From IMG/VR virus record IMGVR_UViG_2565956726_000008: 64,000 nucleotides of DNA. One strand, given 5' to 3'. Below, piece by piece: positions 35,137 to 48,923 of the stretch; the stretch's first letter is position 1, and each line of letters starts with the position of its first letter. The notes under the pieces are model-generated. The model was given only the letters and a program-made list of their open reading frames with translations. It did no database searches and was not told the DNA's origin. The stretch is from a virus (taxonomy: Duplodnaviria > Heunggongvirae > Uroviricota > Caudoviricetes). The translations under genes and the position numbers were made by a program.

Positions 35137-35559
35137 ATGGCAAAAGTATTTACACCAGAAGAGCGAGAAAAAATTAAAGGACAGGTTGTTGAACTTGTAC
35201 CTCTGAGCGGTCGCGAGACGTTACGGCAACTGGAAGCCAAGACAGGTGAGACAAGATATCTGATGAGTGTTCTCGCCAGTGAGCTGGTTGCCAGTGGCGA
35301 TGTATACAACTCTGGTTACGGGTTATTCCCGTCTGAACAGGCGCGTAAAGACTGGCAAAACGCCCGCAAAAAACTATCGAGGGCAAAGGTGAAGAAACCT
35401 GCTGTAGTTGATCCGGACCTTATCTGGTCATTACCAGACGGAGAAATACGCCGCTATGACAGGCGTCTGAATATAATCTGTCGCGAGTGCCGGAAGAGCG
35501 AAGTCATGCAGCGTGTACTGGCGTTCTATCAGGGTAATTTTCAGGATGTGCTGTTGTGA
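35137..35559 (+). CDS. hypothetical prophage protein
   Basis: 140 aa from MAKVFTPEEREKIKG; CxxC near C-terminus (ICRECRK). Confidence 0.45.
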   Translation: MAKVFTPEEREKIKGQVVELVPLSGRETLRQLEAKTGETRYLMSVLASELVASGDVYNSGYGLFPSEQARKDWQNARKKLSRAKVKKPAVVDPDLIWSLPDGEIRRYDRRLNIICRECRKSEVMQRVLAFYQGNFQDVLL

Positions 35560-35720
35560 GCCAAATTAACAATCAGGGAACTGCGTGAACTGAAAGAGAA
35601 ATCATAATCCAAATCTGAATAATTAAATTTAGCACTGTAAATAAAATTTAATCCTTAACCGGAGGGGGGGGCTGCACCCTCAAAATATTAGGAGGCGGCC
35701 CGAAAGGGCGGTAATGAAAA

Positions 35721-36224
35721 ATGACTGAATTAACCAAAAAGCAATTAATCGAAGAAGCTAAATTAAAAATAGCGATTGAGAAATGCCACCCCAATTCAGG
35801 GATGGCACGGGTAGAGGGCGAATTATTCAAAATTGCTCTGGCATCGCTGGAAGCAGAGCCAGTTGGTGATTTTTATGAATACAAACCGGATGACTGGTAT
35901 CAGCGTTCGGCTGGAGATAAAGCGCCAAAATGGACGCCACCCTATGCCGTTTTTCCAGCGCCCGTAGTGCCGGAAGAAATGGATTTGCTTACATGCCATC
36001 TCGATGGTGTAACTGAAACATATGCTGAGGGATGGAACGCTTGCCGCGCTGCCCTGCTTCAGGGCAAAGGGGAGCCCGGGAAACAAGTTCGCGAATTGAC
36101 AATGCTGGTTAAACAATTGGTTAGTCAACTGAAGAAACCGAAACCGGGCTGCAAATTGCCGGATAAAGTGATGGACTACCTGGAGCGAAGCGGACTTATA
36201 AGCGTGGAGGATGTTTTACGATGA
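35721..36224 (+). CDS. hypothetical prophage protein
   Basis: 167-aa ORF with AGGAGG RBS. Confidence 0.5.
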   Translation: MTELTKKQLIEEAKLKIAIEKCHPNSGMARVEGELFKIALASLEAEPVGDFYEYKPDDWYQRSAGDKAPKWTPPYAVFPAPVVPEEMDLLTCHLDGVTETYAEGWNACRAALLQGKGEPGKQVRELTMLVKQLVSQLKKPKPGCKLPDKVMDYLERSGLISVEDVLR

Positions 36225-36304
36225 CCTGGCCTGAAGCATTCACAACGGTAGGAATTGCGATGGCGGTGGCGCTGGTGGTGTATTCGATTTGCCGCTGGGG
36301 TTGA
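36221..36304 (+). CDS. small hydrophobic peptide (27 aa), translationally coupled
   Basis: ATGA overlap with preceding stop; MTWPEAFTTVGIAMAVALVVYSICRWG is a single predicted TM helix. Not in the provided track. Confidence 0.3.
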   Translation: MTWPEAFTTVGIAMAVALVVYSICRWG

Positions 36305-44639: not shown

Positions 44640-45431
44640 ATGAGCGAGAAATTAAAGATAGTCTATCGCCCATTACAAGAATTGTCACCGTATGCGCACA
44701 ACGCCAGGACGCACAGTACTGAGCAGGTGGCACAACTGGTAGAAAGTATTAAGCAATTCGGCTGGACTAATCCGGTGCTGATTGACGAAAAGGGCGAAAT
44801 TATTGCGGGTCACGGTCGTGTTATGGCGGCTGAAATGCTCAAAATGGATTCTGTTCCGGTCATTGTTCTGTCTGGCCTGACGGATGAGCAGAAAAAGGCG
44901 TACCGCCTGGCAGATAATCGCCTGCCGATGAATGCTGGCTGGGATGAAGATCTGTTGCGGATGGAGCTGTCGGACCTAATCAATGCTGATTTTGATGTCT
45001 CCCTGACAGGCTTCATCCCGACAGAAATTGATGAACTGTTGACGGATGTTTTGCCCGGTACAGGAAATGAGGAGGAGCCGTATACGACGAAAATTGATAC
45101 GCCTGTTTATGAGCCGTCGGGCGGTAAACCGGATATCAGTGAACTGTACGACGATACGAAAACTCAGGAGCTGATCAGCCGGATACGTTCGGCGTCCCTT
45201 GAGCCTGATATTGAGAAATTCCTCCTGTGTGCGGCAGAACGTCACACGGTGTTTAATTTCAGCAGAATTGCGGACTATTACGCTCACGCCCCCTCTGAAA
45301 TTCAGTGTTTTTTCGAGGAGTCGGCGCTGGTGATCATTGATTATCAGCAGGCTATTGAAAATGGATTTGTCCGGATGACGCAGCGCATGGTGGAGATCAT
45401 GCATGGTGGTGAGGAGGAGGAATATGCGTGA
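44640..45431 (+). CDS. ParB-like nuclease domain protein (YnaK-like, full length)
   Basis: 263 aa; N-terminal ParB/Srx-like region (LKIVYRPLQELSPYAHNARTHS...ILIDEKGEIIAGHGRVMAA). Confidence 0.6.
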   Translation: MSEKLKIVYRPLQELSPYAHNARTHSTEQVAQLVESIKQFGWTNPVLIDEKGEIIAGHGRVMAAEMLKMDSVPVIVLSGLTDEQKKAYRLADNRLPMNAGWDEDLLRMELSDLINADFDVSLTGFIPTEIDELLTDVLPGTGNEEEPYTTKIDTPVYEPSGGKPDISELYDDTKTQELISRIRSASLEPDIEKFLLCAAERHTVFNFSRIADYYAHAPSEIQCFFEESALVIIDYQQAIENGFVRMTQRMVEIMHGGEEEEYA

Positions 45432-46356
45432 TGATTTTTGCGCCTTTATTCTGACTCACGGGCGACCGGACAAAGTTCTGACTTACCGGACGTTGCGTCG
45501 TGCTGGCTATACCGGGAAAATTTTTATCGTTGTTGATGATGAAGATAAGACACGGCATCAGTACATGGCTGAATTTGGTGAACAGGTGCTGGTGTTTTCC
45601 AAAGCCGATATCGCCAGTCGTTTTGACGAAGCCGATAATTTCTGTGACCGCCGCTCAATTTTTTACGCCCGTAATGCCTGTTTCGACCTGGCAAAACTGG
45701 TCGGGTGTAAATACTTCATTCAGCTCGATGATGATTATCACGAGTTCCAGTTTCGGGTGGATCGCAACTATGACCAGGCCTATTTTCCGATAAGGAAACT
45801 GGATGCGATCCTTTCTGAAATGCTGGCGTACTACGAATCAATACCTGCTCTTTCCATCGCTATGTCGCAGGGCGGGGATTTTCTTGGTGACAATGGCGGC
45901 CATGCTTCGTGGGTGAAACGCAAGGCAATGAACAGCTTTATCTGTTCGGTTGATCGACCGTTCTCATTCATGGGGCGCATTAACGAGGATGTGAATACGT
46001 ACACGAATCTCGGTCGCTGTGGTGAATTGTTTATGACGATCGGTGCTGTCCAGTTAGGGCAGAAACAGACGCAGAAAAACAGCGGCGGAATGACCGAGCT
46101 GTATCTGGATTCCGGAACCTACGTTAAAAGTTTTTACTCCGTCATGTATGCGCCGTCGTGCGTAAAAATCTCACTGATGGGTGCCAGCCATAAACGCATT
46201 CACCATCAGGTCACCTGGAACAACGCTGCAGTAAAAATCCTTCACGAAAAATACAGGAAGAAGACACCCTGCATATCAATGGGGGTGACAAATGATTCCG
46301 TATTCGAAAGTCGAGTCTCTGGCAGCGTGCCGGATGACTGCACAACAAATCGCTGA
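45424..46356 (+). CDS. GT-A-like (glycosyltransferase-fold) protein, putative; YdaY-position
   Basis: 310 aa from MRDDFCAFILTHGRPDKV; N-terminal region and DxD-like QLDDDY motif resemble GT-A glycosyltransferases; tentative. Confidence 0.4.
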   Translation: MRDDFCAFILTHGRPDKVLTYRTLRRAGYTGKIFIVVDDEDKTRHQYMAEFGEQVLVFSKADIASRFDEADNFCDRRSIFYARNACFDLAKLVGCKYFIQLDDDYHEFQFRVDRNYDQAYFPIRKLDAILSEMLAYYESIPALSIAMSQGGDFLGDNGGHASWVKRKAMNSFICSVDRPFSFMGRINEDVNTYTNLGRCGELFMTIGAVQLGQKQTQKNSGGMTELYLDSGTYVKSFYSVMYAPSCVKISLMGASHKRIHHQVTWNNAAVKILHEKYRKKTPCISMGVTNDSVFESRVSGSVPDDCTTNR

Positions 46357-46543
46357 CGTTCTGGATGTTGATCTGAACCGACTGAAAGAAAATCGGGAAG
46401 CAATGACAGATTTTTATGCGGCCATCCGTAAGGGCAGAGCGAAAGGTGAAGCCGAGTTACGAGCGGCATTGTTTAAGCTTGCCAGAAAAGGGGATGCCTT
46501 TGCTCTGCGCGAACTACTCAGGGTGGATAAAAATCAGGACTAA
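46334..46543 (+). CDS. small HTH-like protein upstream of terminase, putative
   Basis: 69 aa from MTAQQIADVLDVDLNRLKENREAM (listed ORF starts 46292); overlaps the end of the preceding gene. Confidence 0.35.
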   Translation: MTAQQIADVLDVDLNRLKENREAMTDFYAAIRKGRAKGEAELRAALFKLARKGDAFALRELLRVDKNQD

Positions 46544-46546
46544 CTG

Positions 46547-47641
46547 ATGAGCAGACCGGACTGGGGGGCGTTGCAGCAGGAGTATATTGCTGAATACACC
46601 CGCTCCGGTATATCTCCGGTGGCATGGTGTGAAGCAAGGGGACTGAATTACGCAACAGCCCGTCGTTACATCAAAAAAACTCCGAAAAATGCGCAGACAG
46701 AAATGTGCAAAACTGCGCAAAAAAGTGCGCAGAAAAAATCTGCGCAGACTGCACAAAAGCGGAACGAAAAATCTCAGGAAAAAAAGCCAGTATTCGATGC
46801 GGGCCTGAATGAGGGCGACGCGGAGGAATTTTCGTTCTGTCCCGATGAATTCGGCATTTCTGACCAGCAGGCTAAGTTTGCGATGCTTGTTGCTCAGGGT
46901 AAAAAGCCGACAGAGGCGTACCGACTAGCCGGTTATGAGGGGCAAGGTGCGACAGCTAATAGCAACGCCAGTCGTATGCTTAGAAATGCCAGGGTTTTTC
47001 GCGCTATCAGCTACTTCCGCAATCAGTACCAGAAACGCTATACCGCAGACCTGGATTTACTAGTGAGTCAGTTGATGGCCATTGTCCTGGCCGACCCCAA
47101 TCAGCTTGCACAATTTCGCCGTGTTAACTGCCGTTATTGCTGGGGCGAGAATCATCTCTACCAGTGGCGCGATATAGCAGAATTCGACAAGGCAGCGGCG
47201 CAGGCTTCCAGAGATGGCAAACCCGAACCGGAATATGGAGGCCTCGGCTTTGTTGATAACGCCATACCCAATCCGGACTGCCCGAAGTGCTGCGGTGAGG
47301 GAACGGGACAGCTTTATATGGCTGATACCACTCTGCTTGATGGGGATGCGCGGCAATTATATGCAGGGGCAAAATTCGGAAAATTCGGCGTTGAGATCCT
47401 GCTGGAGGATAAGGCTGCCGCCCGGCGTGAATTGTTGCGTTTGCTTTCTGCTGGCGGGGCTTTATGTGCAGATAAGCGGCTACAGGAACTGGAAATTGAA
47501 CGGCGCAGAATGGAAAACCAGAAGCTGCGCAAAGAGATCGAAACGGTGGAAGATAATGAACATCCCCAGCCTGTGGCGATCAATATTAATGTGGTTGATG
47601 CCAGAGTAAGGAGTGATGAAGATGATCTCTCCGACGCTTAA
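46547..47641 (+). CDS. terminase small subunit with Cys-rich insertion
   Basis: 364 aa; AKFAMLVAQGKKPTEAYRLAGYEGQGATANSNASRMLRN is a typical small-terminase HTH segment; additional CxxC...CxxCC cluster; contains a DNA repeat array at 46685-46765. Confidence 0.6.
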   Translation: MSRPDWGALQQEYIAEYTRSGISPVAWCEARGLNYATARRYIKKTPKNAQTEMCKTAQKSAQKKSAQTAQKRNEKSQEKKPVFDAGLNEGDAEEFSFCPDEFGISDQQAKFAMLVAQGKKPTEAYRLAGYEGQGATANSNASRMLRNARVFRAISYFRNQYQKRYTADLDLLVSQLMAIVLADPNQLAQFRRVNCRYCWGENHLYQWRDIAEFDKAAAQASRDGKPEPEYGGLGFVDNAIPNPDCPKCCGEGTGQLYMADTTLLDGDARQLYAGAKFGKFGVEILLEDKAAARRELLRLLSAGGALCADKRLQELEIERRRMENQKLRKEIETVEDNEHPQPVAININVVDARVRSDEDDLSDA

Positions 47642-48923
47642 TGTGCCTCAGGCGCGATTTCTTTCAATGCCCCATAAATTTAAAGCCTATATTGCTGGTT
47701 TTGGCTCGGGCAAAACATGGGTTGGGTGTGGCGGCATATGCAAGGGGATTTGGGAGCATCCAGGTATAAATCAGGGATATTTTGCGCCAACGTATCCCCA
47801 AATTCGCGATATTTTTTACCCTACAGTGGAAGAAGTTGCTGCTGACTGGGGATTGAACGTAAAAATTAATGAGGGAAATAAAGAGGTTCACTTTTATTAC
47901 GGACGCCAGTATCGGGGAACCACTATCTGCAGATCGATGGAGAAGCCACAAACGATCGTCGGTTTCAAAATTGGTAATGCGTTGGTGGATGAACTGGACA
48001 TTTTGCCGAAGGAAAAAGCCAGAACGGCGTGGCGCAAGATAATTGCACGTATGCGTTATAAGATTGATGGACTTCGCAACGGTATTGACGTTACAACCAC
48101 GCCGGAAGGATTCAAATTTGTCTACGAGCAGTTTGTTAAAGCCGTGCGTGAAAAAACAGAGCTGGCCTCACTGTATGGTCTGGTGCAGGCATCTACTTTC
48201 GATAATGAAAAGAACCTGCCAGCAGATTACATTCCTTCGCTTCTTGAATCATACCCTCCAGAGCTGATTAAAGCCTATCTTCGAGGACAGTTTACTAACC
48301 TGACAAGTGGTACTGTTTACCATCAGTTTGACCGGAAACTGAATAATTGCGAAGAAGTGGAGCAGCCAGGGGAGCCGATTTATATTGGGATGGATTTTAA
48401 CGTTGGAAAGATGGCGGGAATCGTCCATGTGCTGCGTTTGGGGCTTCCATGTGCGGTAACTGAAATCATCAATGCCTACGATACGCCGGATATGATCCGC
48501 ATCATTAAAGAACGCTTCTGGCTGTATGATGGGAATGATTACCGGAAAGTGAGGGAAATTTATATTTATCCAGATGCTTCCGGGGATTCCAGAAAATCAA
48601 GTAACGCAAGTACGACGGATATAGCCCAGCTTAAGCAGGCTGGTTTTAACGTTGTGGTGAACAGCTCGAACCCGCCAGTAAAAGATCGCGTTAACTCAAT
48701 GAATGCAATGTTCTGCAATGCCAATGGTGAGCGTCGCTATAAAGTTAATGTGAAGCGTTGCCCGTTATATGCCGAATCTCTGGAGCAACAGGTCTGGGAT
48801 GAGAAGGGGGAGCCTGATAAAAAATCTGGCAATGATCACCCGAATGATGCCGGAGGTTATTTCATCGTTAAGCAATTCCCTATTGTCAAACCGACCGGAA
48901 GAGTCACATCACTTCGGATTTAA
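47613..48923 (+). CDS. terminase large subunit
   Basis: 436 aa; Walker A (GFGSGKT) and C-terminal nuclease-type acidic motifs; follows small subunit. Confidence 0.8.
   Translation: MMKMISPTLNVPQARFLSMPHKFKAYIAGFGSGKTWVGCGGICKGIWEHPGINQGYFAPTYPQIRDIFYPTVEEVAADWGLNVKINEGNKEVHFYYGRQYRGTTICRSMEKPQTIVGFKIGNALVDELDILPKEKARTAWRKIIARMRYKIDGLRNGIDVTTTPEGFKFVYEQFVKAVREKTELASLYGLVQASTFDNEKNLPADYIPSLLESYPPELIKAYLRGQFTNLTSGTVYHQFDRKLNNCEEVEQPGEPIYIGMDFNVGKMAGIVHVLRLGLPCAVTEIINAYDTPDMIRIIKERFWLYDGNDYRKVREIYIYPDASGDSRKSSNASTTDIAQLKQAGFNVVVNSSNPPVKDRVNSMNAMFCNANGERRYKVNVKRCPLYAESLEQQVWDEKGEPDKKSGNDHPNDAGGYFIVKQFPIVKPTGRVTSLRI

Follow-up and report, generated by a model that had tools for sequence, protein, structure and literature searches.

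In phage lambda, a cos system with a lambda-type large terminase subunit (TerL), cosB contains multiple short R elements of ~16 bp that lie beside the cut site and outside the Nu1 coding region, with a site for integration host factor (IHF) between them, and that are bound by the N-terminal helix-turn-helix (HTH) domain of gpNu1. Pac sites, at which packaging is initiated, have known recognition sequences in only a handful of headful-packaging phages. The pac site of P1 spans 161-162 bp inside pacA and comprises seven TGATCA/G hexamers and an IHF site under Dam control; the phage is packaged less well when its hexamers are recoded synonymously (PMC10028697). In SPP1 and SF6 the pac region has direct repeats and extends over the beginning of the gene for the small terminase (terS), spanning promoters and the terS start in SPP1; the DNA shows A/T runs between GC or CG steps, and a model wraps it round a ring of HTH domains (PMC4737164). 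The SF6 HTH is weak and non-specific, and the pac box repeats are not the determinants (PMC4737164). The pac site of P22 and Sf6 is a single asymmetric stretch of ~22 bp within the small-terminase gene (gene 3 and gene 1, respectively), and that of ES18 is still unknown (PMC11260489). Here we analyse an array of TGCGCA hexamers in the 5' part of terS of a full-length Rac-type prophage, located at ttcA of an Escherichia coli chromosome according to RefSeq, which annotates an identical genome. The prophage is contained in the 64,000-nucleotide record IMGVR_UViG_2565956726_000008, hereafter the window. We propose that the array probably serves this Rac-type prophage as the recognition element of its pac site, to be read by an N-terminal HTH domain encoded directly upstream of it.

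The array consists of six hexamers within 66 bp (Table 1), four of them exact and two with one mismatch, with start-to-start spacings of 14, 10, 12, 15 and 9 bp. The first-pass annotation, made from the window alone, had described five copies that encode a low-complexity linker peptide and had marked them as a candidate packaging-recognition site. The array is real and correctly placed, with exact TGCGCA at 46690, 46714, 46726 and 46741; the encoded peptide, KTAQKSAQKKSAQTAQK, is likewise right (aa 55-71 of the 364-aa open reading frame, ORF), and the five listed strings are present, although they hold six hexamers rather than five. The position of the decayed second copy is occupied in most relatives by an exact TGCGCA, read aTG CGC Aaa (M/V-R-K), and that of the sixth is exact in several. 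As both variant positions are thus exact in close relatives, the family consensus would be six copies, of which the window allele has lost two. Across the 64 kb the hexamer occurs 29 times against 28.6 expected, the array holding 4 of the 29; the Poisson probability of four within 57 bp, corrected for 29 sites, is ~8e-5, and outside the array no two copies in the window lie closer than ~300 bp. A search of the window for a second cluster returned scattered one-mismatch hexamers, nothing clustered. The array is interleaved with eight A-tracts on the coding strand, the flank consensus around the hexamers is A-rich, and the AA periodicity of 11.5-12 bp around the array was reached in 0 of 2000 shuffles; the tracts may render the array DNA bendable for wrapping, bending being what has also been proposed for the pac DNA of SPP1/SF6 (PMC4737164). 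The only other TGCGCA of terS, further downstream in the codons of a conserved C-terminal helix, is found in the same context in loci L084, L085 and L114, and its membership in the element is uncertain.

The repeats could in principle be a functionless by-product of a (T/S)AQK linker, arising by slippage or duplication together with codon bias, and several features are compatible with this: disorder is predicted for the K/A/Q-rich linker, in-frame indels change the number of copies and the length of the array among close relatives (e.g. L067-L069), and elsewhere in viruses TGCGCA runs do encode true tandem repeats of a peptide (e.g. AAQ, AAHD, GAQ). We find this explanation hardly tenable, and its peptide-only form was discarded in view of the frames used, of spacings that break the frame and of the codon statistics. 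When the window peptide was held fixed and its codons resampled synonymously according to phage codon usage (200,000 trials), four or more TGCGCA appeared in a fraction of 2.6e-4, and all six relaxed matches in 4e-5. Homologues were then considered as a set of 96 unique arrays of the type found in the window (ARR-type, see below), drawn from 42 genome loci of distinct species, ~160 viral-contig loci and phage records. There the hexamer occupies all three reading frames (441, 97 and 21 copies), which give the unrelated peptides x-A-Q, L/V/M-R-x and C-A, and start-to-start spacings include 7, 10, 14 and 16 bp, which in-frame tandem duplication is unable to yield. The six bases stay constant under a varying peptide (TAQ, SAQ, NAQ, PAQ, IAQ, TAH, VRT, MRK, CAE and others). 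Codon choice points in the same direction: A-Q dipeptides are coded T-GCG-CA in 129 of 147 cases (88%) in the array zone compared with 45 of 109 in the rest of the gene (Fisher P = 3e-15), with T preceding the Ala codon in 137 of the 147 array-zone dipeptides and GCG used in 132, and the 1.5 kb on either side of terS contain 0-2 copies of TGCGCA. Klebsiella phage homologues with ~70% nucleotide and 44% protein identity carry six exact copies, read as T/P-A-Q, L-R-T (tTG CGC Act) and C-A (TGC GCA). Judged by frames, non-triplet spacings, codon choice and persistence in ~40 species, the hexamer is conserved as DNA and not as peptide, as the initial annotation had surmised.

Comparison with related phages, also suggested there, shows that arrays are kept after the same HTH across genera: homologues from ~40 species carry 3-9 exact hexamers at this place, in arrays that cannot be aligned copy for copy. 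The sole constant neighbour of the array is a ~44-residue N-terminal domain of TerS (...DWG.LQ..F...HA..GISPK.WCEAQGLNYATARRYIKK). The two occur together with at least three unrelated TerS bodies (among those seen are Terminase_2, with or without a CxxC insertion, and the 933W/RothD type) and with differing TerL types, and blastn homology blocks end within or just after the array. When viral contigs were scanned for three closely spaced TGCGCA, irrespective of the protein, 69 of the 120 stretches lay directly after the HTH and ~9 more proved to do so on inspection, the remainder being true peptide tandem repeats or chance. Matching DNA is present in 1630 of 5426 complete E. coli genomes; the vB_EcoS-... 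records are prophages predicted in silico.

The clearest indication of a functional connection between the domain and the DNA is that the two covary. Among 86 unique sequences with ARR[Y/H][I/V]K in the putative recognition helix, there are 2-9 copies of TGCGCA and 0-1 of TGCGAA. Ten sequences with AKRYIK have 4-8 copies of TGCGAA/TTCGCA, often as TGCGAAT or as the palindrome TGCGAATTCGCA, and 0-1 of TGCGCA; both counts derive from a mostly protein-first set of loci. In a larger set, which was partly selected on the motif, the HTH residue and the hexamer agree in 132 of 133 ARR and 18 of 18 AKR sequences. A motif-first scan for TGCGAAT gave 8 HTH-linked stretches among 120, all of them AKRYIK, and mainly unrelated A-N tandem repeats otherwise. 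Outside the helix, enterobacterial AKR domains are 88-91% identical to enterobacterial ARR domains and 47-56% to the Pasteurella AKR domain, and a distant Vibrio ARR sequence retains CTGCGCAA repeats. Since the R/K state does not match the domain phylogeny, at least two independent switches are accompanied by the motif. This covariation is the strongest argument available that the N-terminal HTH would read the hexamers.

The same observation bears on whether a protein other than TerS, such as a host factor, the product of an 83-aa ORF (46292-46543) upstream of terS, a restriction or defence nuclease, or a satellite protein, is what the array attracts. Binding of TerS is, after all, predicted from sequence, the 83-aa ORF is similar to part of a small-terminase PHROG, and TGCGCA is a type II restriction site (FspI class). 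The N-terminal HTH is nevertheless the only partner that is constant across Escherichia, Klebsiella, Pantoea, Vibrio and Pasteurella, the motif switches with HTH residue 39, and a host factor would leave the change from TGCGCA to TGCGAA within Enterobacteriaceae unexplained. The 83-aa product was rejected as the binder, being encoded in just 4 of 49 array-bearing loci, and targeting by another protein is altogether very unlikely.

A role at the RNA level, in which paired palindromic hexamers form hairpins that modulate terS translation or stop antisense transcription, draws on a fold of 46670-46800 with z = -3.24, on an 8-bp hairpin at 46726-46746 and on the minus strand of the latter interval, which scores as intrinsic-terminator-like (TGCGCAGA-N5-TCTGCGCA followed by a T run). 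Any two self-complementary hexamers can pair, however, so such a signal is expected by construction, and the terminator-like hairpin is probably a by-product of the palindromic hexamers. The spacing, number and pairing partner of the copies differ among relatives while the hexamers remain exact; adjacent copies of the Klebsiella type, 7 nt apart start to start with a 1-nt loop, are too close to fold; and in AKR-type arrays the word is TGCGAAT, which is not a palindrome and occurs in both orientations. No Rfam match was obtained and the hairpin is not conserved, on which grounds a known RNA family or structured RNA was rejected, and we regard an RNA element or terminator as very improbable.

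What the reading domain may be is indicated by its similarity to PacA of P1. TerS appears to be composed of two HTH modules, of which the first would be an add-on. AlphaFold2 predicts the N-terminal domain as a three-helix bundle (46-sequence alignment; predicted local distance difference test score, pLDDT, of 77), and NCBIfam and Pfam return transposase-type HTH matches below threshold. Profile comparison of the TerS HTH with the N-termini of P1 and D6 PacA (hhalign, alignments A2 and A5) gave a probability of 97.9% and an E-value of 4.9e-13 over 47 columns; pairwise BLASTP of TerS against P1 PacA gave E 0.044, with no similarity beyond the HTH. A PDB sequence search with the HTH domain found no match. 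In the full-length AlphaFold2 model, which has a mean pLDDT of 52 and served for domain boundaries alone, residues 45-93 fall below 50. The canonical small-terminase HTH begins only at ~aa 99-108, after the 95-residue extension formed by the PacA-like HTH and the linker, and is not at the extreme N-terminus. Residues 108-158 show a weak match to the Pam5 small terminase (PDB 21di, 134-residue chain, residues 9-55; E 0.23), and TerS matches Terminase_2 (PF03592) over aa 122-321 with 35.1 bits (gathering cut-off 26.1) and phrog_51 with E 2.4e-76. The CxxC...CxxC insertion in the terminase body, a region of low model confidence, is probably a zinc ribbon.

Based on the homology of the HTH to PacA and on the hexamer/HTH covariation, both of which support the candidate packaging-recognition site of the first-pass annotation, we propose the following mechanism. 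TerS, presumably an oligomer like small terminases in general, would present several tethered N-terminal HTH domains, each binding one hexamer, with multivalency providing specificity and the flexible tethers tolerating the irregular spacing of 9-15 bp. The multivalent, probably bent complex would mark phage concatemers and recruit TerL, the presumed nuclease and motor, which would cut nearby, and packaging would start. Binding, oligomeric state, bending, cut position and headful packaging are what we infer here. Given the transposase-like nature of the domain, and its translation shortly ahead of transcription of the array, co-translational loading in cis might also occur.

In SPP1, binding of TerS at the pac region also regulates expression. 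The same HTH could bind the array for autoregulation of the terminase, or for control through loading in cis, instead of or besides initiating packaging, for DNA conservation and covariation show a functional link between HTH and array and not the role of the complex. The site is intragenic and lies just past the HTH codons, where bound protein could block transcription or translation, and the pac region of SPP1 takes in promoters together with the terS start (PMC4737164). Against this, the homologous system of P1 uses its hexamers as packaging site (PMC10028697), no promoter-like site was found in 46000-47700, and the module is always N-terminal on a terminase subunit, a stand-alone regulator never being seen in the examined sets, truncated genes aside. 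A regulatory role is therefore unlikely, though less so than the other alternatives, and recognition for packaging is the reading we retain.

Several points weigh against the assignment as a pac site. All evidence on array members is comparative sequence analysis, and a literature search returned no paper on a Rac pac site and none connecting TGCGCA to the terminase of a phage. The boxes of SF6 and SPP1 are not read by the HTH, so repeats in a pac region are no proof of recognition. The region 46300-47300 contains neither a WATCAANNNNTTR match nor an ATCAA-N4-TT core in a scan for the IHF consensus only, and TGCGCA lacks GATC, which makes control by Dam methylation impossible; the prophage annotation includes no DNA methyltransferase, and P1-like methylation control was rejected. 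Without IHF consensus and Dam sites, the regulatory logic of P1 is not transferable. TerL has no detectable similarity to that of ES18 (a phage with a TerS of 143 aa) and, in a PDB sequence search, no relative with a solved structure; lacking a close characterised relative, it can be linked to headful packaging through Pfam family membership alone. Finally, the window allele has a single cluster with two decayed hexamers, and the prophage carries an IS5 transposase gene at ~35261-36241, in its early/regulatory region (RefSeq annotation of the identical genome), and may for this reason be less than fully inducible or functional. Owing to the two decayed copies and the IS5 element, the terS array of the window is perhaps sub-optimal.

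As ~210 bp hold both the reader and its site, the two would be inherited and exchanged together. We tentatively suggest, with somewhat less than even confidence, that the N-terminal HTH and its hexamer array form a portable, self-contained packaging-specificity cassette, coded in ~210-250 bp and moving as one among the unrelated Terminase_2, 933W/RothD and PacA bodies. Such a cassette would follow a simple rule, in which the identity of recognition-helix residue 39 (R or K) goes with that of hexamer base 5 (TGCGCA or TGCGAA), and variants containing GATC are found in Stx phages and P1. If this is correct, the cassette would predict the pac sites of a large share of enterobacterial prophages (Rac-type, Klebsiella prophages, Stx phages) and hints at how packaging specificity may be reprogrammed, the match between HTH residue and hexamer base being a natural specificity swap that is directly testable. 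The element itself would predict the Rac-type packaging signal from sequence and, by extension, that of many Klebsiella, Enterobacter, Citrobacter, Pantoea, Vibrio and Pasteurella prophages, perhaps also of Stx phages. A packaging signal bears on the host genes moved by generalised and lateral transduction, on possible hijacking by satellites and, as with P1 pac, on the construction of phagemids and transducing particles.

Table 1. Features of the terS-terL region, in window coordinates.
Feature	Position	Strand	Description
terS, small terminase gene	46547..47641	+	364-aa ORF; Pfam, phrog_51, RefSeq 'terminase small subunit'
Codons of N-terminal PacA-like three-helix HTH	46547..46678	+	aa 1-44; putative recognition helix ...NYATARRYIKK; proposed hexamer reader
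Codons of K/A/Q-rich linker	46679..46825	+	aa 45-93; predicted flexible; DNA carries the array
Eight A-tracts (A4-A7)	46673..46785	+	all on coding strand, interleaved with hexamers; period ~11.5-12 bp
Whole hexamer array	46690..46755	.	six hexamers in 66 bp; terS nt 144-209
Copy 1, TGCGCA	46690..46695	.	codons aaT GCG CAg, N-A-Q
Copy 2, TGTGCA, decayed	46704..46709	.	other frame, aTG TGC Aaa, M-C-K
Copy 3, TGCGCA	46714..46719	.	T-A-Q
Copy 4, TGCGCA	46726..46731	.	S-A-Q
Copy 5, TGCGCA	46741..46746	.	S-A-Q
Copy 6, TGCACA, decayed	46750..46755	.	exact TGCGCA in several relatives
Codons of canonical small-terminase HTH and long helix	46841..47092	+	aa 99-182, start of Terminase_2 body; pLDDT 70-87
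CxxC...CxxC insertion in terminase body	47129..47290	+	C195/C198 ... C245/C248; cysteines invariant in alignment A1
Lone TGCGCA	47526..47531	.	terS nt 980; conserved C-terminal ...KLRKE... helix; membership in element uncertain
terL, large terminase gene	47613..48923	+	Pfam Terminase_6N (E 3.7e-33) and Terminase_6C (E 3.4e-10)

A number of further observations concern arrays in relatives. In terS genes of the Klebsiella/Enterobacter type there are two clusters: TGCGCA occurs 5-6 times within nt 138-196 and again at nt 348, 360 and 386, the latter three in two frames. This second mini-cluster, a trait of Klebsiella/Enterobacter/Citrobacter-type genes (L002, L003, L090, L092, L094 and others; gene nt 348-398), lies ~150 bp downstream of the main array in the codons of the canonical terminase HTH, where it is read in the frames V-A-Q, I-A-Q and I/L-V/M-R-T. 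The defective fusion gene of phage Rac-SA53 (L001, 1490-1560), annotated as a 'gpO-terS fusion by deletion', has its joint at the first array hexamers and has lost the HTH, and its downstream copies have decayed to TTCGCA, TGCGCT and TGCCCA. This decay fits relaxed selection once the HTH is lost, and breakage at the array may account for where the deletion ends. In phage VT2-Sakai (orf49, L127), an Stx-phage small terminase has an N-terminal HTH of the same class (...NYNTARTRIK), followed at nt 1130-1185 of the locus by four (C/T)GATCATGA repeats with an exact 12-bp period (KIDHEIDHKTDHEIDH), which contain Dam sites like the P1 hexamers; they represent a candidate pac element of Stx phages. 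Two viral contigs (L297, L318) encode a different small-terminase N-terminus (…VDWE…SLR(E/Q)IA…) followed by three TGCGCA read L/V-R-x, which may be a remote relative of the HTH-plus-array design.

Many database proteins of 44-88 aa (P0121-P0240) consist of the HTH alone and end in or just past the array region. A frameshift of this kind in L120 (also cited: L121, L123) is found in an A-run of the array, with A8 in place of A9. Such truncated ORFs result either from homopolymer sequencing errors or from a slippery site at which terS is often truly inactivated. They made up most of a second protein search with the N-terminal profile, which was accordingly used for the domain model and not for diversity. 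Locus ends were rejected as a stand-in for virion ends, since the boundaries are ends of storage blocks or draft assemblies and so uninformative.

The prophage is ordered intR ... recET ... lysis genes, trkG, ynaK, a glycosyltransferase gene, terS, terL, portal, P22-type capsid protein and lambda-like tail, with a DUF4055 portal downstream of terL; coordinates in the corresponding locus L214 equal those of the window minus 20000. Between the trkG moron and terS lie ynaK (44640-45431), which has a ParB/Srx N-terminal domain, and a gene for a 'TET-associated glycosyltransferase' (45403-46356; PF20691, E 3.8e-35; phrog_842, beta-glucosyl-HMC-alpha-glucosyltransferase). The pair (44640-46356), which is found beside terS only in L084-L086, may be a DNA-modification module. 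The 83-aa ORF shares bases with the 3' end of the glycosyltransferase gene, and its match to phrog_309 ('terminase small subunit') covers positions 145-218 of that family. Actinobacillus phage vB_Apl-pPE4 (PP818812.1) has 93% nucleotide identity to the E. coli terS body (query 550-1140), a closeness unexpected for such distant hosts that suggests recent transfer or contamination.

Among the described systems, that of P22 and Sf6 resembles the Rac-type locus in that the small-terminase gene harbours the pac site, a candidate one in the Rac-type locus, and in that the phage is lambdoid and probably packages by the headful mode. It consists, however, of one non-repeated mid-gene site instead of a repeat array in the 5' quarter, and there is no sequence relationship. 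The likeness to R elements of cosB, which had been suggested initially alongside pac sites, is the weaker of the two comparisons: the hexamers are intragenic here, and TerL matches Terminase_6N/6C and is not lambda-type (GpA). With SPP1 and SF6 the locus shares the Pfam family of G1P and the TerS body (Terminase_2), and the pattern of A-tracts and GCGC resembles their pac DNA. It differs from these in the position of the DNA-binding HTH, which SPP1/SF6-type Terminase_2 small terminases have at the extreme N-terminus, and in having an additional N-terminal HTH with repeats that are exact, kept across genera and covarying with it.

The comparison with P1 pac holds best. In both loci, repeated palindromic T-NNNN-A hexamers occupy the 5' part of the gene for the small terminase and follow directly on the codons of a homologous N-terminal HTH (hhalign 97.9%): in P1, HEX4 is at nt 194-233 and the HTH at ~aa 10-44, in the window the array is at nt 144-209 and the HTH at aa 1-44. 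The frames are alike too, mostly xxT NNN NAx with some copies in another frame; the P1 hexamers are mostly xxT GAT CAx (I-D-H, N-D-Q, G-D-H), others being in a second frame (M-I-I, V-I-T). In the P1 record, hexamers at pacA nt 194-233 and 324-380 flank the cleavage region, annotated at nt 276-285, whereas the window has one cluster only, the Klebsiella/Enterobacter-type relatives being bipartite like HEX4/HEX3 of P1. The word is T-GCGC-A in place of T-GATC-A, the HTH is joined to a Terminase_2-type body with a CxxC insertion in place of the PacA body, and TerL belongs to Pfam Terminase_6 (PacB was not directly compared). The prophage is lambdoid and siphovirus-type with a P22-type capsid protein, whereas P1 is a plasmid prophage. 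In conclusion, the array would be of a known kind, the P1-type pac site of repeated hexamers, and would differ from it in the hexamer itself, in having no Dam or IHF features, in its one cluster, in the fusion to Terminase_2, in its wide spread and in a motif switch linked to a single HTH residue.

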